A stretch of 64,000 bases of DNA from Nanobdellota archaeon (GTDB lineage: Archaea > Nanobdellota > Nanobdellia > Pacearchaeales > GW2011-AR1). The notes beneath the pieces are model-generated. The model was not told the DNA's origin. It made no database searches and saw only the letters and a program-made list of their open reading frames with translations. The stretch spans positions 35,790-99,789 of the forward strand of contig JBBSZK010000002.1 in NCBI GenBank assembly GCA_038044745.1, written 5' to 3'. A program made the translations under genes and the position numbers. Each line of letters starts with the position of its first letter. The first letter of the stretch is position 1. Positions 15,515 through 43,786 of the stretch are shown piece by piece.

Positions 15515-15977
15515 CTGCTTGTTCTAATGACTCGTCAGGAGCGAGAATTATTTTTCCCGTTAAAACGCCCTTATTGTACACGTCCACGTTCAAACGAGAA
15601 GTTCCCGCATTAGTAATGTCATAGCCCGCATCAGACACGCGCACCTGCAAATCAACAACCGATTCAACCGTAATCTGTCTAATCTCGCTCGGTAAAACTC
15701 CTTCGACCATCCAGTAATAAGTGCCCGGCTCGAGAGTAATGAGTGCTTTATCACGCACCGAAATACGTTGCGGCGACGTGAAGTCAACCGTGTCATCAAT
15801 TAACAAGAAGTCTCCACGTTCAAACGAGAAGAGCACGGCACCCGTAGCAATAACTCCATTCGAAGGAGTATTCAACAACGGAGTCGCGTAAAAGAAAGCC
15901 CAGACGACAAGCGCAAGCGTTCCCACTACTAAAAGTGCATCAACCCCGTACACTATTTTTTTACGCATATTATTCAC
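15483..15977 (-). CDS. N-terminally anchored small surface protein
   Basis: TM segment ALLVVGTLALVVWAFFYATPLL. 8-nt overlap with the giant gene's stop. Confidence 0.5.
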   Translation of the reverse strand: MNNMRKKIVYGVDALLVVGTLALVVWAFFYATPLLNTPSNGVIATGAVLFSFERGDFLLIDDTVDFTSPQRISVRDKALITLEPGTYYWMVEGVLPSEIRQITVESVVDLQVRVSDAGYDITNAGTSRLNVDVYNKGVLTGKIILAPDESLEQAGDSFIGGQHD

Positions 15978-18900
15978 TCAAACTCGCAACGAGCGTGACG
16001 TTGGCCCTCCGTACCCCGGGCGGTTCATTAATAGGAACCGTAACATTAATATCAATTTCGGCCGTATCGGTAGTATCGGTATAATTAAATGACGAAAAAC
16101 AAAGCAGAGGCGATTCAGGCAAACCATCGCTCAGAGGTATCGCCGCATAAGCGGTTTGCGACTGCGCCCAGATAAACGAACCGAGCTCAGAGCTATAATT
16201 AGCCGCTTTAAACTGGAAGTAATTCGAGCCGCCTGACTGTGTTTCCCAAAGGTGCGTTGAGGTAATCGTGACATTAACGAACGAATTACCATCATTCTCA
16301 AGCAAAAACGGTAGCGGAGCATCATCAGAGGTATCATTCCATTGTAAGTAATCAAGTGAGCCAAAGTCAATAGAATTATTCAAAAGCGTAATGCTTACCA
16401 CCGAAGAGATATTGATGCGCCAAGGTACCGTCCAGCCACTCATGCCATCGCTATCGTTAACGCGTACAGTCCAATTATAATAGTCAAGATTATCATACAA
16501 ACAGCGCAAGTCGGGCACGACAGCATAGCTCACATTGGTGCCTCCCAAAAGGCCTGTCACCGTCGCCGAATAAAAATGAGAAATATCTGTGCAGGCGCTT
16601 GTCGCTACCAAGCTCACGTTCAACTGCCACGTTGCACCTTCGTCATCTGCGTCGAATACCGTAAAGTTAAGCACAGGAGTCCTATTCGTCGTGCGGCTTG
16701 CATCAGGGGGAGCAAGATGCGTAATGTTCGGAATTGTATTCAAAACAGTCACATTATACGTTGCATTAAACGGGCCCGTATACAAAAATCCATCAAATAC
16801 ACGCACGCCACACGTCCAATTATGTCCCTTCGTTGTATTACGATCGTCCAACGTAGCTATGAAAACGCTGGCATTTGCATAACTCGTGTTGTAATCTGAC
16901 ACCAAATGAAGAACTGAATTATTGTACCAAAATACACTCGCGTTCAAGAACGTATTCGCATCGGGGTCACTTAAAGTAGTGTAACAGTTCAAGTCCTGTT
17001 CGGTTTTATTCGACCCAGAAGTCGAATTGATATGAACAAGAGTCGCTGCCGGAGCACGATTTGACACAACACCAATACTATAATTGCTCCATCGCGATAC
17101 ATTAAAGATAACCGTGCCTGCATTCAAATCGGTGAAGTTGTAACAATCAACGCATCCCGCAACATCATCCTTAAGAATAACCGGATTAACGAAATTAGTA
17201 GAAATACCGGTAAGCGTTACGTTTGCAGTCGTATTTAATCCCGAATTAACCTCGTTTCGAACGGTAGCGCTATTGTTTACAATACGCACATCCGCACTTA
17301 AATTAATACCCGAACCATTAATATAATCAAGAAACTTAATCTTTCCAAATAAGCTCGATTCAAACGTGAAATAGCGCCCGCCCGTATCAGCAAACGAATA
17401 ATTTGCGAAATAACTATCTTCGAAGCGAATATTCTGCAGATCAGTCCCTGAAGCAATAAACTGAAGGTCAGGATAGGAGCTATTGGTACCAATCACGCTC
17501 AGATTCGTGAAATTCATACGATCAAGCGCCGCACTAATTCCGTTCACATTGAAAACGAGAGCCGGGCCCGTAGAGTTATGCACAAATATGTTCGTGAAGT
17601 TATGGTCGCGAAGCGCACCCGTTGTGGGAAGGAAATGAAGAGAAATATTGTTTCTTACAAACGTCAAGTTCCTAAATATACCTACTTTAGCAGCCGTAGA
17701 AATGCGAAGACCATAGAAAGTACTGGAATTAATATACGAATTTTCAAACCATACATCCTGGGCGCTAATTAAGATACCTGCCGTATTATTATGCAGACTA
17801 AGTCGCGAAAGATTGGTTCCTGACGAAAGTGAATCTATCGAAACACCGAGTGCACTTTGCGAAACAACAACATCAGAGACAATCGGACGCGTCGCAGCCG
17901 TTATAGAGATACCCGTAGATGCCGAAGTTATAGAAAGATTTGAGATAAACGCGTTCGCAATATAACTGCCCGTACCTATAAGAGATACCCCTGTAGTAGT
18001 ATTAGTAAATACCGAATTAGTGACGTTGATTTGATTAGACCGAATGACAACCCGCGCACCCACATCGTTATCCTTAAACCATAATGTATCTAAAACAGTC
18101 ACGTTTGCCCATTCAACCAAGAGTCCTATGTCTCCCGAAATAAGCGTCGTGTTAAACACGCGAGCATTATTTGAATGATTCAAATGGATTCCCCATCCAA
18201 ACGGACCTTCGGACGAAAGACTGATATTTACCCCAGAAATCGTAGTGTTATATTCATCACTGAAAATGACTGTATAATTATACGTAGAATTAACCATCCA
18301 ATACCCGCTACCGAGAATGCTGATATTGGGCGCGTCAACACTGATGCACGGAGTAACACCACTCGGCACAAGCGTGCCAATCTGGGTATAAACAGAATTA
18401 GCCTGACTTAAGTTCACACAGATGTCAAGAGGCATAGTTAGCGTACGCAGCGTCCAGTTCGTTGCGTTCATCGCGTAGTTGCTTGAGTTATCACCCGCAT
18501 AATAATTCCAAACGTAAGTATCGTTTCGAGGAAGCACAAACGAGAGATTAACAATACCCTGGCTCACGTTCAAACTCGAGAAATTTGTACCTATCAAACT
18601 CGTAGCATTCCAGATATACAGCGTTGCGTTTGAAACGTTTATGTTATCAGAAATGTTCGCCGCAAAATAGACAATCGGAAAGCTCGCAGAACTGTCATTG
18701 GAAGGATGCATGAGAGAGACGACGGGAAAAGTTATATCAGCTAGATTAATACCATACCCCTCGTAAGTAAGGTTTCCTATCAGAATAGGAGTATAAAACG
18801 AGTTAGTTCCCGCATAGTGAAACAAAGAGACATTCGCGGAAGTCAAATTTCCAGTAAGCGGATAACCCGTAACGACATAGGCACTCCCATTATAAGAAAA

Positions 18901-21900
18901 ATTCTGTTCGGCGGCTCCATTCACCGAAAGGCTAAAATTACTATTCAAAAGTAGTTCGGCATTCTGAAGACTAACATTGACCGTTGTATTTGTTCCAAAA
19001 TCAACGGAGGTAAAGCGTTGTTCGCCCCGAGAAAAATAACGAACAGAAGCATTAGAAAAAATTTGAGAAACTTCTGAATCAGTAAGAGAGACATTAAATA
19101 TCATTACTTCATCAATGAGACCATTAAAAGCGCTAGACCCCTCTGAACCGAAGAGAAGAGGATTATTATTAAGCTTGAGCGCCTTGCTCCCTGAAACCAG
19201 AACGCGAGCTACGGGACTACCGTCCCGGTAAAGTGTAACTCCTCCGGTAGTATTATAAGTACAAAAAAAATTATACCATTGATTTTTTGACATAACCAAA
19301 GAATCAGTCGCAGCAAAATTGGTACCATCGGCGCGCTTCACAAGACAGCGCATGTTCATGCTAGCATTAGGTGTAAGCGCAAAGGTAAAATCAGAACCAG
19401 TTCCTTTAATCATGACGCGCCCAGACGACGTGCCAGAACCTCCCGACCAATTAATCCAAGCTCCCCAACTCAAATTTAAAGGTAAGTCAAAAAGACTTTC
19501 GTTGAAAGTTACATTAACAAGATCGTTCGTGCCATCAAAAAATGCGCTTGCTCCAAGAAAACCGAGCCTCGCAAACGCACCACGTTGATAAGAACCATCA
19601 CTACTATGAGAAGAAAAGTCAAAAGCAGTAATGTTATCATCTCTATCGAAAGGCCAATACCCCCTAAGGTCAGAGTAAGGAGCAGAGTTGCCAACCGTCA
19701 GATGAGTAAACAACGTTTCTTGAGTCACGTTTTGGTCTGTTGAACTACTCGCAACAAGCGTGGGGTCAACAATATGGTCAAACATCATGCTTCCATTAAG
19801 CACATGCAAATCAAATACATCTTGACTATAATTTTCAGGAAGCTCGGTCAAATAAATAGTATAATAACGCTCATCAGTCACATCATCAAACACGGCAAGC
19901 GTCGTATTCTGCGATGTCTCATACACCTTCACGAAAGGAGTGCCATTCAGCACACGCGGATAGAGCGTGATATCATTCGCCCGCGTCAAATTGCGTTCAA
20001 ACGTCACGCGCACGTAATGTCCGTCCGGAATCGGCTCACTCCAATTCCCATCGAGTTCCTTCACAGACTCGTACACATCGGAAACAAAAGTGCGATTCTC
20101 ATCAAGGTGGTCTGCTTTTGTAATAACAATAATCTCATAAGTCTGATTAGAAAAGTGTGGCACAACCCACGCCACCGAATCAATAAATCCATCCCCATCA
20201 CTATCCGTCGCTTCAAACGGAACCAAAACCTGTGCAAGAGAAGCAACCGTGACATTTTCTGAAACGGGGCGGACCGAAATCCACGCCGAATCGGATGTGT
20301 TGTCCACCTCAGCGTCTGAATTGTCAACAAATTCTGCAACAACGGCGCCCGTGAGTGAAGCCCCCTCAGAAGATTCATTCAACATCGAATCTTCCGACTC
20401 CGAAATAGTCGAAGAGTCGTTAGTTTCAGCAAGTGATTCATCTACAAGAATTTCATCAGAAAAAACATCAGACGCCGTTGCAAGATGAGCACTGTCAATT
20501 TCATCAACAAGAGCCATATCAGCTACCTCATCTTGCAACTTAAGGCTACTATAATTAACGAAGGTATCGGGAGTAAGCCATGCCAACTGAATAGTAGAGG
20601 GCTTAGTAATCCGTAACTCGTTCGGAAGAGAAGCAATCACGACCACATCAGAATAATTAAGCGCCTCAGACGCAACAAGCGTTATCGTCTTTCCTCGTGC
20701 CTGCGAAATTTCTACTGCCGCAGGAGGTGCGGTATAGTATTCGACCGTATATGCCGTAGCCCCTGCATCAAGCACGACCTCGGAAGAAGACTCGTATGAG
20801 AACGCCTCTCCCGCTCCGAGAGAAGCCGACTGATTAGAGAGTTCAGACGTAGCGTTATCAGAAGCAACCGATTCAACAGAAATATCACTCGTAACCTGTC
20901 CCGTACCTGCAACAACGGCCCCTGCAATCCAAGATGCAAAAGAAGGACGCGATTCAATAAGCGCCGTAATCTGTCCCGTAAGCGGAACAGAAAGAGTGAC
21001 GTTATCTGCCTGAACAGAGTCTCCCATCGAATCAAAGGCAGTAACACTCACGTTCTCTGCGCCAGCAGGAAGCGGCAACACGAAAGAAGAACCATCGGGA
21101 ACGCTTACGTTCGTCACCCAGTACACCGGTTGACCCAGCACAACTTTAGTACGGCGAGTTGTAAATGAAAACGTCGAGGTCCGGCTCACGACCGAAAATT
21201 CATTACTTTCGACCGAGTCGCCAGCAGACGTAAACGCCCGTATGCGCGCAGTGCGCACACCGACAAAGGGCTGCGCCGCACGCACATCCATAAAAGATCC
21301 TTCAAACGAAACAACCATATCCGAAGCAATAAGTTCGTAAGCATCAGCGCCAATAAAATACGTGCTCAAATCAAGGCGCGCACTGTAGTTCTCATCAAGA
21401 GAAAGAGAAGGAATAGTCTGCAATAGCATCAACGTGTCATTAGCAATAGTCTCATTCACAATTGTTTCATTCACTAACGTCTCGTTAAACACATCAAGGA
21501 CTTCTACAATTGTTTCGTTCTCTTCCGTAGAAGCAGCAAGCGTCAGCTCCGAACTATCGTCTACCAAGGTTACCCCTCCAAAAACAGCGGTAAGACTCAG
21601 ACGTGTAGCGTTACGTACTACAAGGTCGAACAAATCGAGAGGAATGCGCACCCGATATCGGCTCTCTCCCCGATAATCCTGCCCAAATCCTGAAAGGTTC
21701 ACTGAATAAGAACTGGACACGCGCACCGACGTCCCTTCCTGTTCAACAAGCACAAAAGAATCAGAAAGTTCTTCGCCAGCAGACCCACGCACACTTCCCG
21801 AAACTAACTGAGCCGTATACCCTTTAGAGAGCCCATACTCAAACGAATCCATTCGCGAGGCGGTACCCATAATAATATCGTTCTCATCCGAAATAACCCC

Positions 21901-22773
21901 TCCCGTTATAGTCCCCCCGCGTTCGCTTGAGCCGCCATCAGAACCAGAATCGTCCGTACCCTCTTCAGAATCAGTACTCTCGCTACCTGACTCATCATCG
22001 TCCACTTCCTTCTTCTCTTCTTTTTCTTCCTTCTCCTGTTTTTCTTCCTTCTTCTTTTCTTCGGCATCTGCAGGTGTATCGCTTCCTTCGACCCCTTGTT
22101 CAGAACCACTATCAGAGCCCTCTTCAACAGAGATAACTTCACCACCGTCTTCTAAATCAGAAGAAGAAACCTCCTCATCTACTCTCGTATCAGTTGCATC
22201 GCCTTCGTCAGAACCTGCATCGCCAGAACCACCATCAGAAGAATCCTCTTCCATCGTGCGTGTTGCGCGCAATTCAAACGTAACGTCGGGATACATAACG
22301 TTCGTTCCAGCAAGACCATATCCGGTACCGGTACCTTCCAAGTCAAATCCCTCCGCATAGAAATCACCCTCAATCGATGCAATCGTGCTTCCCGCCAAAA
22401 GTTCATGCAAGGAATACGTTTTTTCAACATCACCCAAGCGAGCCGTTATAGAAGTTGTAGCAGGAAGCAACTCGCCTTCATTAAAGATAAGTGTAAACAC
22501 ACCTTGCACTCGTTCCCCAGGAAGGTATGTACCGGAACTCTCGAATAAAACGCGTCCCGTAATAGAACGCTCGTAACTTACACCTAACCAGATAGAAAGC
22601 AAAACGAGAAAAGAGATCCCAAGAAAAAGAGAAACCCCGTAAGTTCTCTTACGTTCACCGACGACAGAACTACCTAGATACGTAGTAACAATTTTTCCGT
22701 TGACACGTTCAGTTTTGTAATAATACGGCCCAAATCGTTTGCCATCTTTGTAGGTATATTTCTTGTGCACCAC
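15970..22773 (-). CDS. giant surface protein (2267 aa): 45-aa N-terminal leader + TM, acidic low-complexity region, parallel beta-helix (PbH1-like) repeats, LamG/ConA-like domain, very high N-x-S/T density
   Basis: TM segment GVSLFLGISFLVLLSIWLGV. Acidic stretch EEKKKEEKQEKEEKEEKKEVDDDESGSESTD. LamG-like block LRGYWPFDRDDN...FDGTNDLVNV...FNGLIDEVMIFNVSLTDSEVSQIF. Beta-helix repeats NISILGSGYWMVNSTYNYT...NLSITSASTGISITAA...NNTAGILISAQDVWFENSYINSS. Confidence 0.75.
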   Translation of the reverse strand: MVHKKYTYKDGKRFGPYYYKTERVNGKIVTTYLGSSVVGERKRTYGVSLFLGISFLVLLSIWLGVSYERSITGRVLFESSGTYLPGERVQGVFTLIFNEGELLPATTSITARLGDVEKTYSLHELLAGSTIASIEGDFYAEGFDLEGTGTGYGLAGTNVMYPDVTFELRATRTMEEDSSDGGSGDAGSDEGDATDTRVDEEVSSSDLEDGGEVISVEEGSDSGSEQGVEGSDTPADAEEKKKEEKQEKEEKEEKKEVDDDESGSESTDSEEGTDDSGSDGGSSERGGTITGGVISDENDIIMGTASRMDSFEYGLSKGYTAQLVSGSVRGSAGEELSDSFVLVEQEGTSVRVSSSYSVNLSGFGQDYRGESRYRVRIPLDLFDLVVRNATRLSLTAVFGGVTLVDDSSELTLAASTEENETIVEVLDVFNETLVNETIVNETIANDTLMLLQTIPSLSLDENYSARLDLSTYFIGADAYELIASDMVVSFEGSFMDVRAAQPFVGVRTARIRAFTSAGDSVESNEFSVVSRTSTFSFTTRRTKVVLGQPVYWVTNVSVPDGSSFVLPLPAGAENVSVTAFDSMGDSVQADNVTLSVPLTGQITALIESRPSFASWIAGAVVAGTGQVTSDISVESVASDNATSELSNQSASLGAGEAFSYESSSEVVLDAGATAYTVEYYTAPPAAVEISQARGKTITLVASEALNYSDVVVIASLPNELRITKPSTIQLAWLTPDTFVNYSSLKLQDEVADMALVDEIDSAHLATASDVFSDEILVDESLAETNDSSTISESEDSMLNESSEGASLTGAVVAEFVDNSDAEVDNTSDSAWISVRPVSENVTVASLAQVLVPFEATDSDGDGFIDSVAWVVPHFSNQTYEIIVITKADHLDENRTFVSDVYESVKELDGNWSEPIPDGHYVRVTFERNLTRANDITLYPRVLNGTPFVKVYETSQNTTLAVFDDVTDERYYTIYLTELPENYSQDVFDLHVLNGSMMFDHIVDPTLVASSSTDQNVTQETLFTHLTVGNSAPYSDLRGYWPFDRDDNITAFDFSSHSSDGSYQRGAFARLGFLGASAFFDGTNDLVNVTFNESLFDLPLNLSWGAWINWSGGSGTSSGRVMIKGTGSDFTFALTPNASMNMRCLVKRADGTNFAATDSLVMSKNQWYNFFCTYNTTGGVTLYRDGSPVARVLVSGSKALKLNNNPLLFGSEGSSAFNGLIDEVMIFNVSLTDSEVSQIFSNASVRYFSRGEQRFTSVDFGTNTTVNVSLQNAELLLNSNFSLSVNGAAEQNFSYNGSAYVVTGYPLTGNLTSANVSLFHYAGTNSFYTPILIGNLTYEGYGINLADITFPVVSLMHPSNDSSASFPIVYFAANISDNINVSNATLYIWNATSLIGTNFSSLNVSQGIVNLSFVLPRNDTYVWNYYAGDNSSNYAMNATNWTLRTLTMPLDICVNLSQANSVYTQIGTLVPSGVTPCISVDAPNISILGSGYWMVNSTYNYTVIFSDEYNTTISGVNISLSSEGPFGWGIHLNHSNNARVFNTTLISGDIGLLVEWANVTVLDTLWFKDNDVGARVVIRSNQINVTNSVFTNTTTGVSLIGTGSYIANAFISNLSITSASTGISITAATRPIVSDVVVSQSALGVSIDSLSSGTNLSRLSLHNNTAGILISAQDVWFENSYINSSTFYGLRISTAAKVGIFRNLTFVRNNISLHFLPTTGALRDHNFTNIFVHNSTGPALVFNVNGISAALDRMNFTNLSVIGTNSSYPDLQFIASGTDLQNIRFEDSYFANYSFADTGGRYFTFESSLFGKIKFLDYINGSGINLSADVRIVNNSATVRNEVNSGLNTTANVTLTGISTNFVNPVILKDDVAGCVDCYNFTDLNAGTVIFNVSRWSNYSIGVVSNRAPAATLVHINSTSGSNKTEQDLNCYTTLSDPDANTFLNASVFWYNNSVLHLVSDYNTSYANASVFIATLDDRNTTKGHNWTCGVRVFDGFLYTGPFNATYNVTVLNTIPNITHLAPPDASRTTNRTPVLNFTVFDADDEGATWQLNVSLVATSACTDISHFYSATVTGLLGGTNVSYAVVPDLRCLYDNLDYYNWTVRVNDSDGMSGWTVPWRINISSVVSITLLNNSIDFGSLDYLQWNDTSDDAPLPFLLENDGNSFVNVTITSTHLWETQSGGSNYFQFKAANYSSELGSFIWAQSQTAYAAIPLSDGLPESPLLCFSSFNYTDTTDTAEIDINVTVPINEPPGVRRANVTLVASLSE

Positions 22774-22947: not shown

Positions 22948-24294
22948 TCAAAGAGAGGCAATAGAATAGGCGCCTTCGCCCGGAACTTCAATGACTACAT
23001 TCTCCTGATCAAGCGCAGTACGATTAAAACAACCTGAACAAAAAACTCCGTTGCGCGTAATAAAAAGAGGAGATGTACCCAAAGAGAGATTATAGAAGGT
23101 TACAAGAGAAGGTGTATCGAAAAATGAATTTCGCGAGGCGTTGATAGAAACAAAGTTATGAAGAATAACAATTTCTTCCGACAAATTCAAACCGGTTCCT
23201 TTAACACCGTTATAGAAATAGACGGAGCCCAGGTTAGTGCGACTTAGGGTAAAGGTACTTAACTTGTCGAGAGTATACGGACCGATAGGGGTATCAACAA
23301 AAACATGGTTGTTGCTGCTTGCTAAAACCAAGGCCAAATCATTGAAATTGGTGGGCGTATCAACAAAACGAGTGCGAACCAACGTCAGATTAGAATTTCC
23401 AGAATCCGCAGAAAGGATTTGATTCGTAATCGGGGCAACAAAAGCCGAATCGATAAAGAGTGTATTTTTTACTCCAAACAATCTAACGGATGCTCCATTA
23501 TGAAAAGAAGTAAAGTTAACAAAAGAGTTATGTGTTCCTGAAGAAGGAAAGGTAATTCCCTTATCACCATTATTACGAGTAGTTACATCAACGAAGAAAT
23601 TATATGAGGGGGCAGGCTTACCAAATCCGTAGCCTTCATTTCCAATGAAAAACCCATCGTCTATATTGGAATCTGCAACAAGCCGCTCAAATCGATTGAA
23701 GGAGCTATTCCCTTGTATAACAACACCTTTCATACGATTATGTATCATCAGCCCTCCAGAAAACCGCGAAGAAAGAACTTCGGTTAAACGCAATCCAATT
23801 TGACACTCCTCCACCCTCGGATTGAGAATAACGGCCGAGTGAACCGCGTGTAGGTGGATACCTTCTTTACCACAGTCAAAAACCCGAACGTTAGACACCC
23901 GAGGTCGAGCAGCGTTAGAAATAACAATGCCTCTGCTTAACGAAGTCCCCTCGAAAGAAACCGTACAATTTCTCAAAGTAGTATCATTTTGGTTAGAGTA
24001 AATGCCGATACCTTCTGTCGAACCTAAAATAGTTCGATCCCGACAATCAAGCGTGACACGAGGGGCCGTAATGTTAATACAAACCGTGCCCGAATTGAAT
24101 AAAATATCCCGTTTCAAAGCATAATAAGCCCCCGATATATTTAATTCAGAACAGGACTCAAGATGGGAAAGCCTTAATGCAGGCATGTTTTGAGGCAACG
24201 TTTCAGGAGACGCGGAGGCAAAAAGAAAAAAGCCCAAAATCAAAAACGAAACAACAAGCAAAATTAGACCGTTACGCATACAATCAGGACTCAA
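22948..24294 (-). CDS. secreted right-handed beta-helix protein (pectate-lyase-like fold, PbH1 repeats), Cys-rich N-terminal region
   Basis: Signal peptide with ASA cleavage-site-like motif. Repeats such as GIVISNAARPRVSNVRVFDCGKEGIHLHAVHSAVILNPRVEECQIGLRL are typical of parallel beta-helix proteins. Confidence 0.6.
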   Translation of the reverse strand: MSPDCMRNGLILLVVSFLILGFFLFASASPETLPQNMPALRLSHLESCSELNISGAYYALKRDILFNSGTVCINITAPRVTLDCRDRTILGSTEGIGIYSNQNDTTLRNCTVSFEGTSLSRGIVISNAARPRVSNVRVFDCGKEGIHLHAVHSAVILNPRVEECQIGLRLTEVLSSRFSGGLMIHNRMKGVVIQGNSSFNRFERLVADSNIDDGFFIGNEGYGFGKPAPSYNFFVDVTTRNNGDKGITFPSSGTHNSFVNFTSFHNGASVRLFGVKNTLFIDSAFVAPITNQILSADSGNSNLTLVRTRFVDTPTNFNDLALVLASSNNHVFVDTPIGPYTLDKLSTFTLSRTNLGSVYFYNGVKGTGLNLSEEIVILHNFVSINASRNSFFDTPSLVTFYNLSLGTSPLFITRNGVFCSGCFNRTALDQENVVIEVPGEGAYSIASL

Positions 24295-24339: not shown

Positions 24340-24735
24340 TTAATACCCAAAAAAGCTTTTCTTATCACCCTTGAGCGAGCGATACTTATCGTGAAGGAAT
24401 TTTATATTGTCTTCGCATACGAAATCGTGCTGTCGAAAACCTCCCCCGAACGTCTTAGGAATATGCAAAAGCTCATGAATAATCACTTTGTCTTGCTCCT
24501 CGCGGGACATTCGTTCAAACCGCTCAAGAAATTCAATCGCGTAGTGGGCTTTCACGCCAATCGTTTGTTGCATGAGCTTGCCAATTGTATGACATCGTGC
24601 AATCGTTCGCTTTGTACTCGAGCCCTTACTCCGAAAGCATTTAACGCGTGTCAAATCAACATGCTCAAGCGCAAGCGTGCGTACAATATCTTCCATTCGT
24701 GTTTGTAAATCAGATGCAAATTCGTATTTCACCAA
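24340..24735 (-). CDS. putative Zn-dependent metallopeptidase (HExxH)
   Basis: IIHELLHIPKTFGGGFRQHDF carries an HExxH motif with a downstream His. Small, 131 aa. Confidence 0.5.
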   Translation of the reverse strand: MVKYEFASDLQTRMEDIVRTLALEHVDLTRVKCFRSKGSSTKRTIARCHTIGKLMQQTIGVKAHYAIEFLERFERMSREEQDKVIIHELLHIPKTFGGGFRQHDFVCEDNIKFLHDKYRSLKGDKKSFFGY

Positions 24736-24793: not shown

Positions 24794-26662
24794 TTAACAA
24801 ACCGTAGCAGTATCCTGAGAAAGTTTGACAAGGCAAGAAACGTTGTAACCTGCATCAAGAAGATACTTAAGATTAACGATGACGTGTTTGTTCTGCTGAA
24901 GCAGTGAAACCGACGTATTCCATCGCCACGCATTAAAGCACGCGTCATCACCCGTTGCACAAGTTCCCTCAGGAGGGCTACGAACGAGGTGCATCGTCGT
25001 TCCACCTGCGGCATTTAGTTCCGATTCTTTAAAGAACCGATCTTGAGGATCACTTTCAGTAAATTGCCAACGAATCTCATCTGAAATCACACTATAGCCT
25101 AACGACCAGTTTTGTCTGCGCGGAGGAACTGCCTCAAGATAGGGCTCAACGCCCAAATCACGCATGATCGCAAAATTAACAGAAATTGCCGTTGAATTCT
25201 CAGCCATGTGACCTCCCGACCAATCATACCCCACGGCGATAAACGAACCATCCATCAACTCACCTTGGTAATAATCAAAGTTTTCAGGATAGCATTGCTC
25301 GGGCACAGGAACGTAAAGCTTATCGGTAGCTTTCTCCTCACATCGAGGCATACCTAAATAGCCGAGCAACTGAATCCCATGAGCCTGTGAATACGATGTA
25401 AGCGGAGTATAATCCGTCGTAGAAGGCGAAATATTGCTTTCGGCGATAGTCAATGCCTCGAATAAGAAACTCGAATACGAATAATCGCCAATGCCATCCC
25501 CTGGGAGCCAGACGCGATACTGAGACCAACCACCCCCAATCTGAAAAAAGACCACGTCAAACGCATCATTTCCTACAACCGTGCGGACGGGGTCAATCCA
25601 ATTGGTAATAACCGAATTCCATCCCTGCTGATGATTCCACACAGCATTACTAATTGTTCCTTGTGACACATTCGAGCTTGAACCCCCTACAAGTTGGAAC
25701 AAAGAAAGACGTTTTGGTTTTCTAAAAGTCCAATCTCCCTTTTCATCAACATCCGTCGAAGAATCACATCCATAATCGCCCCCAAAGTCAACAAGCCCAT
25801 CCCCATCATTGTCAACGTCATCGTTGCAGGCTAAATTGCCATAGGTGTTTTCATCGTTATCATTCGCGTCCGTGCATCCCGAATCACCAGGGGTGCTGCC
25901 ATCCATACATATCGAATCAACAAGATCACAGAATCCATCATCATCATTATCAATTCCATCCGAACACGCCGTCATAACCGGAGGACTCTCTCCATTCATG
26001 TACGGATTGTCACAATCAGCAACATCATACCCGTCAATTAATCCATCAAAATCATCATCCTTCTGATTAGAACAGGTCGTACTTCCTTCGAGGTCTTCAG
26101 TTGGATTATCGGGATTTGTTCCACACGCAGGATCTCCGAGCCGCGAACCATCGGTACACGCACCTCCTTCAGCATCACACCATCCATCATCATCATTATC
26201 AATTCCATCCCCACATACTGGTGCGCTATTCCACCCTTCAACAAGAGTACATACGCGTGGGCTTCCTGTAAGCCCGCACGTTTCTCCGTCGACGAGAGCA
26301 GCCACATCAACCTTCGAGGGCGTAGAAATATCCCCAAAAATATAAGTCAACGCTTCAAGCGTATCGGGCAACGGAGTATTCTTATCAAGAAGTGCACTCC
26401 CCGTATTCGTTTCAAACGCAAATCGTAACCCAGTAATCTCCCCCTCCCCCACACCACGACTTACACGCACGCGCGCCATTGTCGCATTATACTCGCACGA
26501 CTCAAGCGTAAACACAAGACCCAAGCACGTTTGCGTCTGACCGCCATCATCAACGGAAGAGACGGTTGAACGCAGAGTCGTCCAAACCACCGTCACTGCT
26601 CCCAAGGAGAGCACAATAATGAACAGGGTGATAATTATCGGCGACATCCCTCTTTTTAACAT
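24794..26662 (-). CDS. archaeal type IV pilin-like protein (class III signal peptide, Pilin_N/DUF1628-like) with large extracellular domain containing Asp-rich Ca-binding (TSP3-like) repeats
   Basis: N-terminus MLKRGMSPIIITLFIIVLSLGAVTVVW matches the archaeal pilin consensus (K/R)G-(V/M)SPVI + hydrophobic stretch. Repeats CGDGIDNDDDGWCD, CSDGIDNDDDGFCD, CNDDVDNDGDGLVD. Confidence 0.7.
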   Translation of the reverse strand: MLKRGMSPIIITLFIIVLSLGAVTVVWTTLRSTVSSVDDGGQTQTCLGLVFTLESCEYNATMARVRVSRGVGEGEITGLRFAFETNTGSALLDKNTPLPDTLEALTYIFGDISTPSKVDVAALVDGETCGLTGSPRVCTLVEGWNSAPVCGDGIDNDDDGWCDAEGGACTDGSRLGDPACGTNPDNPTEDLEGSTTCSNQKDDDFDGLIDGYDVADCDNPYMNGESPPVMTACSDGIDNDDDGFCDLVDSICMDGSTPGDSGCTDANDNDENTYGNLACNDDVDNDGDGLVDFGGDYGCDSSTDVDEKGDWTFRKPKRLSLFQLVGGSSSNVSQGTISNAVWNHQQGWNSVITNWIDPVRTVVGNDAFDVVFFQIGGGWSQYRVWLPGDGIGDYSYSSFLFEALTIAESNISPSTTDYTPLTSYSQAHGIQLLGYLGMPRCEEKATDKLYVPVPEQCYPENFDYYQGELMDGSFIAVGYDWSGGHMAENSTAISVNFAIMRDLGVEPYLEAVPPRRQNWSLGYSVISDEIRWQFTESDPQDRFFKESELNAAGGTTMHLVRSPPEGTCATGDDACFNAWRWNTSVSLLQQNKHVIVNLKYLLDAGYNVSCLVKLSQDTATVC

Positions 26663-28241: not shown

Positions 28242-29174
28242 TCACTTAATACAAAATATCAACGAACACTCATTCGCCTTATCTTTAAAAAAACGCACAT
28301 GTGAAAAATACATTTTACAAAACTTTTCCAATTCTTGAGCATAATATTTGTATTGAATAGCAACCACTATTTCATCACCTGCCTTAAATCTGATGCGTTT
28401 GCCCTCGCACACGAACACTTTATCGTGTTTGATATGGTAAAAGAACTCAAGACGACCGTTAGCAAATCGCGCATCATAACGCACCTCGGACGAGGAAAAA
28501 CCAAGGCCGGCCATGAGCGAAAAAAACCATTCGTTGAATATAGGCTGTCGATATTTTTCAATACCTGCAAACCGCTTTCCCGTACGAATTCCATTCCCAA
28601 CAATCAGCAGGCCCCCATGAGCCATGGCACGACTCATAGAAAAAAGAAATTGATTAATCTCAAAACTAGCCAATGTACTACCAAGAAGAAGGTATGCGGC
28701 GCGAGCATCAGACCGAGCCCTTATTCGCCTGACCAGTTTATCGGGAGATGAAAAGTCCTCGGTGTAAGAAGGCCCTACGGAAAACGTTCGCGACGTTCGC
28801 GTCCGTAACCGTGTTTTAGCAAGATGAATCAAAGGAAGGCTGACATCAACCGGAAAATATTTTGCCTTAATTGTGGAAGGAAGCGACGTTACAAAAACCT
28901 CTGCTTTTTTTCCATCCCCGCACCCAAAATCGACAACATCAAGTTTTCCTCGAGCACCATCAAAAAAACGAGGCACATGAAAACGAATCAAATCAAGTTC
29001 TCTATCGACTACATTAAGTTTATACCTCGGCCAACACTCCAAGTTAAGAAATCCTTGAGCAAGCTGGGGAGTTATGTAAAGCAGTTTATGATTAGCAATA
29101 TTCCACACACGTTTGCCACGCTCTACAGAGTACCCGTTCTTAACTAACTCTTTCAAAACGAGTTGTTCGAACAT
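28242..29174 (-). CDS. SAM-dependent methyltransferase, EgtD-like (Methyltransf_33-type histidine-specific methyltransferase family)
   Basis: Motif I VVDFGCGDGKKAEV. LLGSTLASFEINQ resembles the EgtD LGSTIGNF block. LLIVGNG is also present. Confidence 0.6.
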   Translation of the reverse strand: MFEQLVLKELVKNGYSVERGKRVWNIANHKLLYITPQLAQGFLNLECWPRYKLNVVDRELDLIRFHVPRFFDGARGKLDVVDFGCGDGKKAEVFVTSLPSTIKAKYFPVDVSLPLIHLAKTRLRTRTSRTFSVGPSYTEDFSSPDKLVRRIRARSDARAAYLLLGSTLASFEINQFLFSMSRAMAHGGLLIVGNGIRTGKRFAGIEKYRQPIFNEWFFSLMAGLGFSSSEVRYDARFANGRLEFFYHIKHDKVFVCEGKRIRFKAGDEIVVAIQYKYYAQELEKFCKMYFSHVRFFKDKANECSLIFCIK

Positions 29175-29218
29175 AGAAAAATCAGCAAAAACATCTATTT
29201 ATACGTTTGGAAAGATCG

Positions 29219-30163
29219 CTACTTTTGACAAAGCGCGAGAGCGTAGGCCCCATCATCAGAGACGTAGAGCTTAACATTGTCAAAATACATTTTAAGATAA
29301 GAAAGAAATTCTTCCTTCGGATAATGATAAGATATGCCAACGACTATCTGATCGCCCTTATAAAACTGAACACGTTTTTCCTGAAAAGAAACAGTGGTAT
29401 CTTCAGCAAGTACAAAATAAAACTCAATGCGAGAGTTTCTGAACCTTATATCAAAGATAACGTCATCTTTAGAGAGCCCCAATTGAAGAGGAATGTATCT
29501 AAACATATTTTCAAAACCAGGATTTTCTTTGCACGCCTTGACAATACCCTCTTCAACATTATGGTTGTTCAACCCATTACCAATTAACAAGAAATCTCCC
29601 TCTTGCATACTCTCCTTAACTTCATAGAGAAGTTCATGGATCTCAAAATTACCCAACGTGTTCCCCATAAGCATAAACAGATTATTCTTGAAAGCCTTCT
29701 TATCAAAAAGTCTCGATATATTCTGAAGATTTTCAAAATCAGAAATATTCCAACCAACATCAACAACCTCTGCATTTTCAAGATGACGGACATTGTTTAT
29801 TGCGGTCTTCACCATATATCCACTAATATCAATGGGATAATATCTAACCTTATTCTTGTTACGCATCTTCTCTATCAAAAAAGCGGCTTTCTTACCATCA
29901 CCACATCCCAAATCGATAAGGTTTACCGAATTAGACTTTAGCACGGAAAGAATGTCCATAAAATGTCTTTGGATTAATTGGGATTCCTTAGGCCTAACAT
30001 CTTTCTGATAGCCTGGATGTTGAGTCAGTTCCAAATATGCCTTCGCCTGCTCAGGAGTTATATACCACAACTTCGAATCAGCAATGTTCCAAATCCGAGT
30101 CTTGCCTTCTAACGAATAACCTCTACGAACAAGCTCCCTAAAAATTAATGAGTTAATTTTCAT
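29219..30163 (-). CDS. EgtD-like SAM-dependent methyltransferase, tandem paralog of 28242..29174 (lower GC)
   Basis: LIDLGCGDGKKAAFL, LMGNTLGNFEIHE, FLLIGNG. The N-terminus MKINSLIFRELVRRGYSLEGKTRIWNIA parallels the MFEQLVLKELVKNGYSVERGKRVWNIA of the neighbour. Confidence 0.6.
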   Translation of the reverse strand: MKINSLIFRELVRRGYSLEGKTRIWNIADSKLWYITPEQAKAYLELTQHPGYQKDVRPKESQLIQRHFMDILSVLKSNSVNLIDLGCGDGKKAAFLIEKMRNKNKVRYYPIDISGYMVKTAINNVRHLENAEVVDVGWNISDFENLQNISRLFDKKAFKNNLFMLMGNTLGNFEIHELLYEVKESMQEGDFLLIGNGLNNHNVEEGIVKACKENPGFENMFRYIPLQLGLSKDDVIFDIRFRNSRIEFYFVLAEDTTVSFQEKRVQFYKGDQIVVGISYHYPKEEFLSYLKMYFDNVKLYVSDDGAYALALCQK

Positions 30164-30290
30164 AGACGGCCCTCCAGAACAAAACCTTCTGCATAATCTT
30201 CGAAAATAGCCGCCTTTTTAACCCTTCCGTTTTGCAGGTGTTCCATGCAAATAGTAACGTTTAAAACCGCTTTTCAACTCGTTTCAAAAT

Positions 30291-30363
30291 GCCCTTGTAG
30301 TCTAGTGGCCAAGGACGTCGCCCTTTCGCGGCGAAAACCCGGGTTCAAATCCCGGCAGGGGCA
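30291..30363 (+). tRNA. tRNA-Glu (anticodon UUC)
   Basis: Hand fold: acceptor GCCCUUG/CAGGGGC (one G-U), D stem GUCU/AGGAC, anticodon stem UCGCC/GGCGA, loop CUUUCGC, T arm CCGGG-UUCAAAU-CCCGG, discriminator A. No encoded CCA. Confidence 0.8.
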
Positions 30364-30380
30364 TAAACCATTTTGGCATT
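30351..30380 (+). repeat. attL: 30-bp direct repeat (cccggcaggggcataaaccattttggcatt) overlapping the last 13 nt of tRNA-Glu
   Basis: Exact copy at 57948..57977. The flanking sequence diverges on both sides. Confidence 0.8.
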
Positions 30381-30445: not shown

Positions 30446-31594
30446 ATGAAGATAGACCCATATAATAACAAAGAAAGATACCTTGCATGGCAACAATCGA
30501 CTACCAAGGGTATTCCCAATATTTCAAGCCAAAACTCTGAGATCATACTTCACTATCTAGAAGATATGGAAAGAGGGCTGAATGTAGCAATTGGAAGCCC
30601 AAAGGGTGGCCGAAGTTACCATAGATTAAATTCTCTAAAGGAACGGATGATTTTCTTTGCCAGACAATTTGCAGAACGACACGGAACAATAAAGCTGACA
30701 GAGATTACAGAGGATCAAATGTTAAACTTCTTCTTTGACATGAGAAAAGGGATAGTGAAAAAGCAAGACGGAGGCACCTATAAATCGGTCGATACATACG
30801 CTCGCATTTTTAGAGCATTTTGGCATTGGCACCAAAAAACGAGCAAGAAGCAAGGAATAGAAATCTCAGATATAACGACAGACTTGGACACAAGTGAAGA
30901 AAAACCAGACTGGGTATATCTCACAGAAAAACAAGTAAAGACGCTTGCTGAAAGCGTAAAATTCGATCATAAGGTGCTTATCATGTTTCTTTTCGATTCG
31001 GGAATACGCGCACCAACAGAACTCATCAACGTAAAAGTGTCCGATCTACACAACAATTGCAAGGAGCTTAATATTAGACAAGAAGTAAGTAAAACCTTCG
31101 GCCGTAGGATTAAACTCCTCATCTGTTCGGAACTGCTAAAAGAATACATCGAAAATAACGCCCTTCGGCCAGACGATACTCTTTTCGACATAAGTCCGCC
31201 CGTGTTTAACCGGTTCCTCAAAAGAGCAGGGTTAAAATTGTTCGGCGATAAACCCAGTCCTGCAGGACAAAATTATTCCGAGCTTACTATGTACGATTTT
31301 CGACACTGTTCTTGCTGTTACTGGTTACCACGATATAAATCGGAATCTGCCCTCAAATACAGATTTGGCTGGAAAAAAAGCGAAAAGATTCATTACTACA
31401 GTGAATTGCTAGGTATGAAAGACACAATCTCCGAAGAAGACCTCCTAATAGACACAACAAAGATAGAAATCGAGCAAAGACTCGAACGCTCAGAAAAAGA
31501 AAAAGCCATTATGCAAGATAGGATTAAGACAATGGAGTTGCAAATGGTCAATATAATGGAACTTGTCAAGCAACTCGAGATGGCTCATAAATAG
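30446..31594 (+). CDS. int: tyrosine recombinase / integrase (phage-integrase family)
   Basis: C-terminal catalytic region FDSGIRAPTELINVKVSDL...MYDFRHCSCCYWL...KIHYYSELLG is consistent with the R..H-x-x-R..Y arrangement. Lies beside the tRNA att site. Confidence 0.75.
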   Translation: MKIDPYNNKERYLAWQQSTTKGIPNISSQNSEIILHYLEDMERGLNVAIGSPKGGRSYHRLNSLKERMIFFARQFAERHGTIKLTEITEDQMLNFFFDMRKGIVKKQDGGTYKSVDTYARIFRAFWHWHQKTSKKQGIEISDITTDLDTSEEKPDWVYLTEKQVKTLAESVKFDHKVLIMFLFDSGIRAPTELINVKVSDLHNNCKELNIRQEVSKTFGRRIKLLICSELLKEYIENNALRPDDTLFDISPPVFNRFLKRAGLKLFGDKPSPAGQNYSELTMYDFRHCSCCYWLPRYKSESALKYRFGWKKSEKIHYYSELLGMKDTISEEDLLIDTTKIEIEQRLERSEKEKAIMQDRIKTMELQMVNIMELVKQLEMAHK

Positions 31595-31676: not shown

Positions 31677-32843
31677 TTACTTGGCTAATTCGGCATCTAT
31701 GATTTCCTTGAAAACCGAGTAAGGTTGAGAGCCAGTCAAAGGGATCTCGTTTATGAAAAAATGAGGAGTTCCAGTTATTTTTGAAACTTGAGCATCAATT
31801 ATATCTTCTTGAACCTCTTCAGCAACGTCCGTTTCTTTAAGAAAATTAGTAATCTCAAATCCGATTTCTTTTGCCCACTTAACTAGGTCTGCTTCGAAAA
31901 AATCGACTGCACGAGTTACTTCACCTCCAGCCAAACCGCTGTCTTTAATACTCTGTTCTTTGAATATCTTTTCATACATTTTCCAATGAGCTTCGAGCCC
32001 GTAGTTCTGAAGGACAAATTCTGCGGCCTGTGCCGCAATATTAGCAGACGGATGAAACCCTAAAGGAAAGTCTCTCACAACAAACTTAACCTTCCCAGTA
32101 TCAACGTAATCCTTCTTCAATAAGGGCAATGTTTCTTTCCAAAATTTTCTACAAAATGGACACTGATAATCAAAGAACTCAAGGACGGTTACTGGAGCAT
32201 CAGCCTTTCCTATAAATGGGTCGTTCTCGTTTATTAATGCAGGCAAAGAAGATTGTTCTCCGTTTATGATACTCGCGGAGTAAATATTAAGCAGGTCTAT
32301 CATATTCTGAAGACAGTCGAGCGCATCCTCTTTGTAGTCTCTTCCTATACTGGGGTGGATATTATCATTTCTTTTCTTTTTTATCTGGTGTAAAACTCCA
32401 CAAATGTGCTCATCTAAACCAGCAACAGAAAAAAGAGTATCTATTTTTTCATCTTGACTAATTCTACCGAATTTCTCTAGTCTTCTTTTAGCAAGGCTTC
32501 TCTCTAACCCTTGTTGATAGAGATAAAGTTCGTAGAGGTAGACGCAAAATAACTCCGCCGTAATCCCCACCGATGCGATAGTCGAAAGGTATTGCTCATT
32601 CACATAGCAAAAAATTGCCTCCTTAAGACTGTCAACGACCGATCTGGGGACGTTATAGGCTCTCACATCACAGCCTATTTCGATAAAGCTATTGGCGATC
32701 GAAGAGACGTCTCGTGTATACTCTCCCACAAGCAATCCTGCGAGTCTTTCGGCCGCTTCCTTCTTAGCTGATTCGTCAGTTATCGAAGTCAATTCTTTGA
32801 GAATCGAGAATATGTTGTTCCAATAATGTTGTATGATCGCCAT
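31677..32843 (-). CDS. fusion protein: N-terminal DUF4145-like domain + C-terminal DsbA-like thioredoxin-fold domain (CPFC active site), no signal peptide
   Basis: FFDYQCPFCRKFW...GTPHFFING is a DsbA-type motif. The N-terminal region carries a HICGVLHQIKKKRNDNIHPS block like DUF4145. Confidence 0.55.
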   Translation of the reverse strand: MAIIQHYWNNIFSILKELTSITDESAKKEAAERLAGLLVGEYTRDVSSIANSFIEIGCDVRAYNVPRSVVDSLKEAIFCYVNEQYLSTIASVGITAELFCVYLYELYLYQQGLERSLAKRRLEKFGRISQDEKIDTLFSVAGLDEHICGVLHQIKKKRNDNIHPSIGRDYKEDALDCLQNMIDLLNIYSASIINGEQSSLPALINENDPFIGKADAPVTVLEFFDYQCPFCRKFWKETLPLLKKDYVDTGKVKFVVRDFPLGFHPSANIAAQAAEFVLQNYGLEAHWKMYEKIFKEQSIKDSGLAGGEVTRAVDFFEADLVKWAKEIGFEITNFLKETDVAEEVQEDIIDAQVSKITGTPHFFINEIPLTGSQPYSVFKEIIDAELAK

Positions 32844-32901: not shown

Positions 32902-34017
32902 CTAATGATTTTCAATCAAAGAGACAAGAAGATTTATCTTCTCAAACAACTCATCAAAGGTAATTATCTCTATGTTGGACAACTCATTTCTAAAAATATC
33001 GAAGGACTTCATTTTTTCTAAATCGTTAAGTTCATCTATCGCGTTTCCGATAATTATGAATCCTCGTGGATTATAGGAATTAAATTTTGTATCTGAAGCT
33101 GCAGAGAGATTGTTAAACTCCTTAACTAAATCATCCCTCATCACACATACTTGAGTAACTGCTCCGCTAAGTTCCGGAGAGATGGAGTAGATATTATTTC
33201 TATATTTAGCTCCAATTATTTTAGCAACAGGGGTCTTTATTTCAACGATGCAGATGTTATTAGTTATTTTGTTTCTATAAAGAAAATCAGCATAATTTCC
33301 GCCTTGATTTTCTATCCCCTTTCCCCCAACATAGGCCTTATCTTTCAGAATAATATTTGGAGCAGGAGAAATATGTGAAAGAACCCAAGAATTATCTTTA
33401 AGGAGTGTCTGCCAGAATTCTTCTCTAGAATTATTCTTATTATTTTCCCATGCTTCAGTCATCCTCTTAAGAGAAGCTATATTCACCAGAGAAGAGAGTT
33501 TTTCTCCATCCTGGGTTGTTAGTTTCTTTATTGCCTGAACAAGAGCAGGAATATTGCTTGATTGGGCCACTCCAACAATAATTTCTTCTAATGTGGCAGA
33601 TCCACTTCTTTCGATTATTTTTCTGATTGCTTCACGATTCTTCAATAAATCATCTACGACCTCTCCGAGGTTCTCGTCAGTGATAGTTATCGTGTGTGTG
33701 CCCGATTTTATCCCCAATTTTTCGTAAATTTTATAACATTTATCCAACTCACTAATAAGAGTAAATAACTCTTCAGAGTGCAATTGCAATTGAGTCCATT
33801 CACCTGCCTTCAACTTATTTGCGTCAATATCTTTGTAATTTTCCCATTCTTCATTTTTACCTTTTCTTTGGAGGCGGAAAGTCCCTTTTACACTGGCCTT
33901 CGGATTCTTCTCGTTTTCTACGATAAGAGGATAAAATAAAAGTCGAGTCGTTGTTGTTTCTCGTAAGGTAATTGGGGGCGCTTCAGCAGAAGTTGAAGAT
34001 GTTGATTTGATTAGCAT
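32902..34017 (-). CDS. PD-(D/E)xK nuclease-fold protein downstream of res; possible Shedu-like (DUF4263-type) defense nuclease
   Basis: NYADFLYRNKITNNICIVEIKTP provides the D...ExK core. 371 aa. Co-oriented with and immediately downstream of the type III R-M. Confidence 0.4.
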   Translation of the reverse strand: MLIKSTSSTSAEAPPITLRETTTTRLLFYPLIVENEKNPKASVKGTFRLQRKGKNEEWENYKDIDANKLKAGEWTQLQLHSEELFTLISELDKCYKIYEKLGIKSGTHTITITDENLGEVVDDLLKNREAIRKIIERSGSATLEEIIVGVAQSSNIPALVQAIKKLTTQDGEKLSSLVNIASLKRMTEAWENNKNNSREEFWQTLLKDNSWVLSHISPAPNIILKDKAYVGGKGIENQGGNYADFLYRNKITNNICIVEIKTPVAKIIGAKYRNNIYSISPELSGAVTQVCVMRDDLVKEFNNLSAASDTKFNSYNPRGFIIIGNAIDELNDLEKMKSFDIFRNELSNIEIITFDELFEKINLLVSLIENH

Positions 34018-43358: not shown

Positions 43359-43786
43359 GCAGTAGAAGAAAAGAAACAATTAAACATGATGAAAGCCCTG
43401 TAAGAAAAATAGTACAAGACTCTAAAAGAGAAAAGTATAACAAATTTTTAAGCTTAAAGGCCGCCCTACATTATAAAGATGCTTATCTCGTTATGGAAGG
43501 AGATTGTGGAGGACAGATTTATTTAACTGTTCCAGTAAAATTTGTAAAATGTAATGAAAAAACCCTTAGAAGTCTTTTGAATGAAATAGATTCTTTGGCT
43601 TGGAAAGACCCAGAATGCGCAGGTTTTTATTTTGAAAGAAGACCTAAAGGAGAGATTCTTATAGGCGGTATGGGGGGAGGAAAGATTCAAGACGATCTAT
43701 GGGTGCATAAAGAACTTGAATATCTCAAGGAAAAAATAAGATTAATTTTGAAAGGAAAGGTTAACGCAGATGATTTGATAAAATGA
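43355..43786 (+). CDS. putative cognate immunity protein of the RHS toxin
   Basis: 143-aa ORF whose start overlaps the toxin stop (ATGA). This is the canonical position for polymorphic-toxin immunity genes. No known motif. Confidence 0.45.
   Translation: MSSRRKETIKHDESPVRKIVQDSKREKYNKFLSLKAALHYKDAYLVMEGDCGGQIYLTVPVKFVKCNEKTLRSLLNEIDSLAWKDPECAGFYFERRPKGEILIGGMGGGKIQDDLWVHKELEYLKEKIRLILKGKVNADDLIK

Follow-up and report, generated by a model that had tools for sequence, protein, structure and literature searches.

Little is known of the means by which the ultra-small DPANN archaea find, grip and exploit a host, and type IV pili are prime suspects. A role of such pili in host contact was shown for the Saccharibacteria, bacterial counterparts of these archaea (PMC9894109), and conserved type IV pilus loci were reported in Nanoarchaeota, Woesearchaeota and Pacearchaeota (PMC11291902). 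Among bacteria, modular type IV pilins have been defined by an N-terminal pilin module, a linker and a module that is not pilus-specific, as in PilB (pilin plus vWA) and PilC (pilin plus lectin/glucanase-like) of Streptococcus sanguinis (PMC8179133). In Sulfolobus, the bindosome proteins GlcS, AraS and BasABC combine a prepilin-type leader and a hydrophobic helix with a non-pilin domain, and they are encoded away from the pilus machinery (PMC3387779; bioRxiv 10.64898/2026.04.22.720090). Here we describe a gene found in a 64,000-nucleotide stretch of Nanobdellota archaeon DNA (assembly GCA_038044745.1, contig JBBSZK010000002.1, positions 35,790 to 99,789), referred to below as the window. The gene was first singled out as coding for an adhesive pilin with calcium-binding repeats. 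We consider it rather probable that its product, from a DPANN archaeon labelled Nanoarchaeota, is a surface protein built like a modular type IV pilin, and that this protein carries an enzyme-like cargo.

The gene is a minus-strand open reading frame (ORF) at 24794..26662. As the original prediction had it, the ORF codes for 622 amino acids (aa), with the N-terminus MLKRGMSPIIITLFIIVLSLGAVTVVW. The product is 100% identical to 'MAG: hypothetical protein AABX53_00345 [Nanoarchaeota archaeon]'. The many cysteines noted at the outset were counted as 22, an even number. The protein also contains seven N-x-S/T sequons, and its sole hydrophobic segment is located at aa 1-32. Two full-length homologues were found, P0002 (82% identity) and P0003 (43%). 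P0004 is homologous over the C-terminal half, and P0005, P0008 and P0025 have the N-terminal 150 aa and the acidic repeats in common with the query, with quite different C-terminal parts. The remaining matches mostly concern the repeats alone (Myxococcota, Woesearchaeota and others). Because homologues match it in separate parts, the protein divides into three modules: a pilin-like module (aa 1-149), an acidic stalk (aa 150-309) and a TIM barrel (aa 310-622). It has the parts listed in the definition of a modular type IV pilin (PMC8179133), a definition made for bacterial pilins. The features of the three modules are as follows.

26648..26662, minus strand: putative class III (prepilin-type) leader MLKRG, predicted to be cut after Gly5, with Arg4 at -2.
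26549..26647, minus strand: hydrophobic alpha-1 helix (aa 6-38), putative membrane or filament-core anchor; the only hydrophobic segment, modelled by AlphaFold2 as a helix at 8-38.
26216..26548, minus strand: disulfide-bonded beta-sandwich 'pilin head' (aa 39-149) with conserved C46, C56, C129 and C138.
25736..26215, minus strand: acidic Cys-rich stalk (aa 150-309) with four DxDxDG repeats, delimited by composition, motifs, NF033662 and a repeat profile.
24797..25735, minus strand: predicted (beta/alpha)8 TIM barrel (aa 310-622) of a rare uncharacterised family, glycoside-hydrolase-like, from AlphaFold2, Foldseek and profile search.
25223..25225, minus strand: codon of the invariant Asp480, candidate catalytic carboxylate and last residue of strand beta-4 (D171 in domain numbering; strand 165-171).
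25133..25135, minus strand: codon of the invariant Glu510, candidate catalytic carboxylate directly after strand beta-5 (E201 in domain numbering; strand 197-200).

The leader and the start of the helix read MLKR-G|MSPIIITLFIIVLSLGAVTVVW, in agreement with the class III pattern of K or R at -2, G or A at -1 and then a hydrophobic stretch of about 20 residues. The predicted site, MLKRG|MS, is followed by a predicted 31-residue helix and by the beta-sandwich. Positions -2, -1 and +1 matter for archaeal signal peptidase III, and the query has Arg and Gly at the first two of them (PMC3387779). In a 21-sequence alignment of the family, no residues are invariant other than Gly5 and Ser7, positions -1 and +2 of the K/R-G| site. 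Together with the stand-alone pilin-sized homologues described below, these residues support the archaeal class III signal that had been proposed for the N-terminus. P0004 at first seemed to be without such a signal, but its database start lies too far downstream; an in-frame GTG located 60 nt upstream (L014 9941-10000) restores the leader MFGKKGLSEVV..., MFGKKGLSEVVTSVLLILIS.

Searching for homologues with aa 1-143 as a single sequence returned nothing, the query itself included. A profile built from nine fused proteins worked and recovered 15 stand-alone proteins of 103-163 aa (E 1e-29 to 1e-18). A typical stand-alone relative reads MNKRGLSQVVTTVLIILVVLAAIVIIWAAVRPT...C...SC...C...PVTCS, and one of them bears the JGI name 'flagellin-like protein'. 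These relatives stop just past the fourth conserved Cys, which is the end of the query module (Cys138) and the point where its extension begins. TIGR02537 (arch_flag_Nterm, the archaellin/type IV pilin N-terminal domain) was matched by 14 of the 21 family members, with a best E of 1e-5. The UpsA pilin profile matched three of the 21, and the profile of the bindosome protein BasC gave weak matches in eight. Homology was also detected for the globular part alone, with the helix removed (E 1e-8). AlphaFold2 run on the family alignment gave a helix at 8-38 followed by a beta-sandwich of six to seven strands, with a predicted local distance difference test (pLDDT) score of 85.5; the modelled combination of helix and beta-sandwich is the architecture of archaeal pilins. 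Altogether, homology settles the assignment of aa 1-149 as a predicted pilin-like module, despite the misses against curated profiles that are reported further on.

The company kept by the stand-alone relatives was analyzed by a metagenome scan with this family, which led to 19 loci. Members standing alone measured 129-182 aa in these loci and were often found in tandem. Among the loci, L032 and L033 are genuine type IV pilus clusters, with one T2SSE ATPase gene (E 2e-30 and 6e-29, in that order) and two T2SSF platform genes in each. Full-length family members lie within both pilus clusters, at 7240-7695 in L032 (E 5.5e-16) and at 2672-3208 in L033 (E 1.7e-10). The small pilins of the two loci score just below the Pfam Pilin_N threshold (22.7 and 23.3 bits, against 25.2). 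A pair of platform genes in one locus is the mark of 'system 1', which was reported in DPANN archaea (bioRxiv 10.64898/2026.04.22.720090). Both loci, at 5569-14074 in L032 and 438-10782 in L033, are compact metagenomic archaeal type IV pilus loci with at least five small class III-signal genes each, and they would serve well as reference loci for the pilin-like family.

In related archaea, one and the same pilin module carries exchangeable cargos. Its fusions in the metagenome loci range from 264 to more than 1792 aa and include LamG-like cargos, beta-helix-like cargos and other Cys-rich linkers. P0005, P0008 and P0025 also join the module to different C-terminal cargos. The C-termini of P0005 and P0025 were considered as possible relatives of the barrel; a profile comparison with the barrel revealed no similarity, and they were classed as different cargos. 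Directly upstream of the homologue in the P0003 genome (L001 6812-9709), a 965-aa protein has the same pilin module (MFRRGIASIVVTVLVIL...), which a short acidic linker connects to a C-terminal region that is NHL-like. In another locus, a protein with helix-turn-helix (HTH) and Sigma70_r4 domains (L004 8571-9923) is encoded directly upstream of two tandem small pilin genes. The same domain pair is found in the window, in the product of a divergent gene at 8011-8826 that adjoins the surface-protein operon. Proteins of this type might control the expression of surface-protein or pilin genes.

The stalk is composed of 24% Asp and 7% Cys, with a net charge of -43. The original prediction had described repeated C-x-DGIDNDDDG-x-CD motifs in a 600-aa extracellular portion. 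The motifs are real, with strict copies at aa 150 and 233 and looser ones starting at aa 197 and 279, but they are confined to about 160 aa. Within aa 150-309, five overlapping D-x-[DN]-x-D-G matches fall into four repeats: two four-Cys variants (aa 150-180 and 233-263), a degenerate copy (aa 197-217) and a canonical 29-aa unit (aa 279-307). The canonical unit, CxDGxDNDGDGxIDFPxDPGCxxxxDxxE, was found in 504 copies in 120 listed proteins.

Kinship of these repeats with thrombospondin (TSP) type 3, as first proposed, is not supported by any profile. Pfam TSP_3 (PF02412), Dockerin and EF-hand gave no match at E<=10, either with the whole protein or with pieces of it (aa 144-309 for TSP_3). The repeats are nearer to NCBIfam NF033662 (acid_disulf_rpt, an acidic double-disulfide repeat) and to EF-hand loops. 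NF033662 was matched at 23 bits (E 4.9e-5) over three stretches, the best being aa 230-253, a score that does not reach the curated cut-off of 41. For a profile of the canonical unit, the best match among solved structures was loop 2 of the calmodulin EF-hand (E 0.026), where DGiDNDgDGliDfPa aligns with NEVDADGDGTIDFPE. At motif level, the repeats have the form of an EF-hand-like loop (D-x-[DN]-x-[DN]-G, where position 8 is hydrophobic and position 9 acidic). Searched against the PDB, the repeat region of the query itself matched nothing above noise (integrin beta-8, E>1). A likeness to teneurin-4, seen with the repeats of P0005 and P0025 (E 0.1-0.16), was dropped, as it was reproduced neither by the query nor by the repeat profile. 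From these motifs, it is reasonable to suppose that the stalk binds Ca2+. DsbA/thioredoxin-like proteins are encoded in the window (31677-32843) and near P0004 (L014 4717-5703); they could form the disulfides of Cys-rich surface proteins.

The C-terminal half of the protein belongs to a family that appears very rare and undescribed, with a clear candidate catalytic pair. When 1.84 billion representative proteins were searched with a barrel profile, only 38 relatives emerged, among DPANN-type archaeal proteins and Planctomycetota; 24 had E<=1e-30. Archaeal-type relatives have K/R-G leaders and acidic repeats (P0121, P0129, P0132); relatives from high-GC (guanine plus cytosine) bacteria have ordinary signals and dockerin-like or beta-helix parts. 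For the locus scan, the barrel alignment of 28 sequences proved too diverse, and a Planctomycetota-only subset was used in its place. Among species-representative genomes, all eight confirmed barrel relatives belong to Planctomycetota (Phycisphaerales, Isosphaeraceae), a count obtained with scan patterns that were themselves derived from Planctomycetota. Genes for sulfatases, ATP sulfurylase and APS kinase lie near the Planctomycetota homologues. The hint at a sulfated glycan that they provide was judged too weak and was set aside, because Planctomycetota genomes are rich in sulfatases.

Modelled by AlphaFold2 from 28 sequences, the domain forms a confident barrel of eight beta/alpha units (pLDDT 94.1; predicted template modelling score, pTM, 0.92). 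Ten residues, including Asp480 and Glu510, are invariant in these 28 divergent sequences. In the model and the alignment, conserved carboxylates are thus located at the C-terminal ends of the strands of an eight-stranded barrel, as in glycoside hydrolase (GH) barrels. An Asp on strand 4 and a Glu on strand 5 form what we take to be the arrangement of GH13-type retaining glycosidases; this was treated as a lead and not as a test. Foldseek comparison with the PDB gave 14 glycosidases among the 16 top matches (GH129, GH18, GH13, GH20, GH123, GH5 and Cwp19; E 5e-7 to 6e-4). A pair of cysteines, Cys441-Cys457 (PRC...EHC motifs), is kept in much of the barrel family, which fits an extracellular protein. 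On the basis of the model, the barrel would bind or hydrolyse a glycan.

The first proposal of an adhesive pilin or pilus-tip subunit had missed this barrel. Its pilin part is supported by the N-terminal module; an adhesin is less likely in view of the TIM barrel, which makes up half of the protein, and a pilin-borne enzyme or glycan-binding module is the likelier description. The barrel could still be a non-enzymatic module that binds glycans or proteins, which would make the query a calcium-dependent adhesive pilin. Other cargos on the same module look binding-type (NHL propeller-like, LamG-like), and adhesion is a common theme of bacterial modular pilins (PMC8179133). Moreover, the query's subfamily has Tyr instead of His before the invariant Asp (GYD, where most relatives have GHD). 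However, Asp480 and Glu510 stay invariant across all 28 sequences, divergent as these are, and occupy the C-terminal ends of adjacent strands, which is where the active site of a TIM barrel lies. The structural neighbours are also overwhelmingly glycosidases. Taken together, we find the non-enzymatic explanation unlikely.

Several results weigh against the reading of the protein as a modular pilin-like protein with an enzyme-like cargo. At E<=10, the query matched no Pfam family, whole or in three pieces; this includes Pilin_N, whose consensus the N-terminus had been said to fit. TIGR02537 was not matched by the query, as a whole or as aa 1-143, even at lenient E. The FlaFind pattern, in the form used here, was missed on account of the Pro at +3, a result given little weight. 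With the N-terminal module, Foldseek returned generic Ig/FN3 sandwiches, and the pilin of Pyrobaculum arsenaticum (6w8u) came only at rank 32 (E 0.024). For the barrel, the likeness to glycosidases is weak, with template modelling (TM) scores of 0.4-0.5 and 8-13% identity. The barrel belongs to no known family: it gave no Pfam or NCBIfam match and no sequence match in the PDB (profile, E<=10). As to the pilus machinery, T2SSE, T2SSF and Peptidase_A24 were not found in the 49 ORFs of the 64-kb window scanned against Pfam, which agrees with the earlier remark that the window contains no prepilin peptidase or assembly ATPase. Finally, no pilus ATPase, platform protein or prepilin peptidase is encoded within 10 kb of P0003, P0004 or P0005. 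The machinery may be located elsewhere in the genome, since conserved loci were reported across Nanoarchaeota, Woesearchaeota and Pacearchaeota (PMC11291902).

The misses against curated pilin profiles would suit an ordinary Sec signal cut by signal peptidase I, all the more so as small residues, S-L-G-A, are present at aa 19-22. The protein would then be a soluble secreted enzyme, and its likeness to pilins a composition effect of hydrophobic helices. This is very improbable in our view: the hydrophobic stretch is membrane-spanning in length and predicted as a single helix (8-38), the homology survives removal of that helix, and neighbouring surface proteins have classical Sec signals that are clearly different.

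The lack of pilus genes near the query gene and its close homologues would suit a membrane-tethered surface enzyme that never enters a filament. The stalk and barrel would stand on the cell surface, and the helix, cleaved or not, would act as a signal-anchor only, as in the sugar-binding proteins of Sulfolobus that have class III signals, or as in a type II membrane protein. Surface proteins other than pilins are well known to bear class III signals (PMC3387779; bioRxiv 10.64898/2026.04.22.720090), the weak BasC matches in the family point the same way, and a filament body has little room for a bulky cargo of about 470 aa. Yet the N-terminal module corresponds over its whole length to the stand-alone pilin-sized proteins, which are found in tandem as well as within type IV pilus loci. 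In bacteria, modular pilins about as large do enter filaments, probably at their tip (PMC8179133), and the strict conservation of Gly(-1) and Ser(+2) favours processing over a plain anchor. A tethered enzyme thus appears possible but doubtful.

If the protein is indeed a modular pilin-like protein, its life might be as follows. A PibD/FlaK-type prepilin peptidase, encoded elsewhere, would cut after Gly5, and the helix would hold the protein in the membrane. The type IV pilus machine would then lift it into a filament made mostly of small paralogues. Because of its bulk, the protein would most likely take a tip position or be a rare subunit; a tip placement has been proposed for bulky modular pilins of bacteria (PMC8179133). 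The repeats would bind Ca2+ and provide a stiff, protease-resistant spacer. The barrel would act on a glycan of the host cell envelope or on an environmental polysaccharide, by binding or hydrolysis, with Asp480 and Glu510 as the catalytic pair.

A bolder and more tentative picture, which we would not put beyond a modest possibility, is that in DPANN-type archaea the type IV pilus serves to display a set of exchangeable tools. The query would be a pilus-borne glycosidase of a new family on a calcium-stiffened stalk, which cuts or grips host envelope glycans in episymbiosis. If this is true, no archaeal modular pilin before it would have had an enzyme as its cargo, and the glycosidase family would be shared only with Planctomycetota. 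An active barrel would found a new carbohydrate-active enzyme family. The build of the query, a pilin-like module joined by its stalk to an enzyme-like barrel, suggests that functional tools are presented by such cells at or close to their pili. The combination of one pilin module with many cargos (TIM barrel, NHL-like propeller, LamG-like, beta-helix-like) provides clonable candidates for a host-contact toolkit and would extend the 'modular pilin' idea from bacteria to archaea.

In the window, the query gene comes after a gene for an Obg-like GTPase and before the following genes.

24340-24735, minus strand: HExxH protein (Pfam PF18894, PhageMetallopep).
22948-24294, minus strand: Beta_helix protein (Pfam).
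15970-22773, minus strand: 2267-aa surface protein with LamG (Pfam) and many N-x-S/T sequons.

The HExxH peptidase and the surface operon had been named as neighbours at the outset, and both are present. The HExxH protein was rejected as a partner: it has no signal peptide, is absent beside P0003, P0004 and P0005, and looks unrelated to the query. The other proteins of the surface operon have classical Sec signals, unlike the query. In the 2267-aa LamG protein, the motif YTYKDGKRFGPYYYK is present at the N-terminus, before the membrane segment. A profile of the pilin-module family revealed no second member in the window. In the P0003 genome, the homologue occupies roughly the same place, after genes for the GTPase and Methyltransf_33. 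At 28242-30163, the window contains two tandem paralogues of Methyltransf_33 (the EgtD-like histidine-specific methyltransferase family), of which one copy is found at the same place in the P0003 genome.

A low-GC segment (about 33-39%, against about 44%) extends from about 30290 to 58000, and at its start are a tRNA-Glu gene (30290-30364) and an ORF resembling an integrase gene (30446-31594). The P0003 genome lacks the segment: in its syntenic region, the rhomboid and Methyltransf_33 genes are about 1.3 kb apart. The segment thus resembles a mobile element that has inserted into a DPANN genome. Type IV secretion-like genes on this island code for a VirB4/TraG-P-loop ATPase (51456-53702), a PrgI-family protein (53671-54513) and a protein with a weak T4SS_pilin match (54513-55325). 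Such conjugation-like genes are unusual in an archaeon of the DPANN kind. The island also codes for a 1912-aa protein with FG-GAP, TcdB_toxin_midN, RHS repeats and LamG (43783-49521), preceded by a shorter RHS-repeat ORF (41928-43358); together these two resemble a polymorphic-toxin system. Its defence genes comprise Shedu SduA (32902-34017), a ResIII/SNF2 helicase (34080-36266) and an N6/N4 DNA methylase (36263-38008). An MT-A70 methylase is encoded at 56963-57571.

Among described systems, the bacterial modular pilins PilB and PilC of S. sanguinis come close to the query in general build: a small pilin module that begins the protein and bears a class III signal, a linker and a bulky functional module, with the same carrier module used for many cargos, as in the query's family (PMC8179133). 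The query differs from them in its carrier, which is archaeal, has an Ig-like sandwich and is unrelated in sequence to IPR012902. It also has a long acidic linker rich in disulfides and, as cargo, an uncharacterised predicted TIM barrel, and its assembly into a filament is putative.

The Sulfolobus bindosome proteins share with the query the prepilin-type leader, the hydrophobic helix, the non-pilin domain and a gene located away from the pilus machinery (PMC3387779; bioRxiv 10.64898/2026.04.22.720090). In contrast to them, the cargo of the query is not a solute-binding domain and a complete pilin head stands between helix and cargo; the similarity to BasC is limited to weak matches in the query's relatives. 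Small archaeal pilins and proteins with an archaellin N-terminus (TIGR02537, PF07790, 6w8u) have the same K/R-G leader, hydrophobic helix and beta-sandwich head, and the query's relatives both match TIGR02537 and sit in T2SSE/T2SSF loci beside Pilin_N-type pilins. The query itself remains below every curated profile and measures 622 aa, against about 140 aa for these pilins.

The stalk has Asp-rich D-x-D/N-x-D-G loops in common with NF033662, EF-hand/DxDxDG loops, TSP type 3 and dockerin, and in the query these loops are stapled by disulfides. The query-type consensus DGxDNDxDGxIDFP aligns with calmodulin loop 2, DADGNGTIDFPE; unlike in the EF-hand, the acidic residue of position 12 is displaced by one in the repeat consensus. 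Finally, the modelled barrel has the eight-stranded fold of the glycoside hydrolases that were its best Foldseek matches, namely GH129 (5opq, 5wzq), GH13, GH18 and the GHL10 domain of Cwp19, from which it is set apart by its low identity and TM scores and by a sequence that matches the profile of no family.

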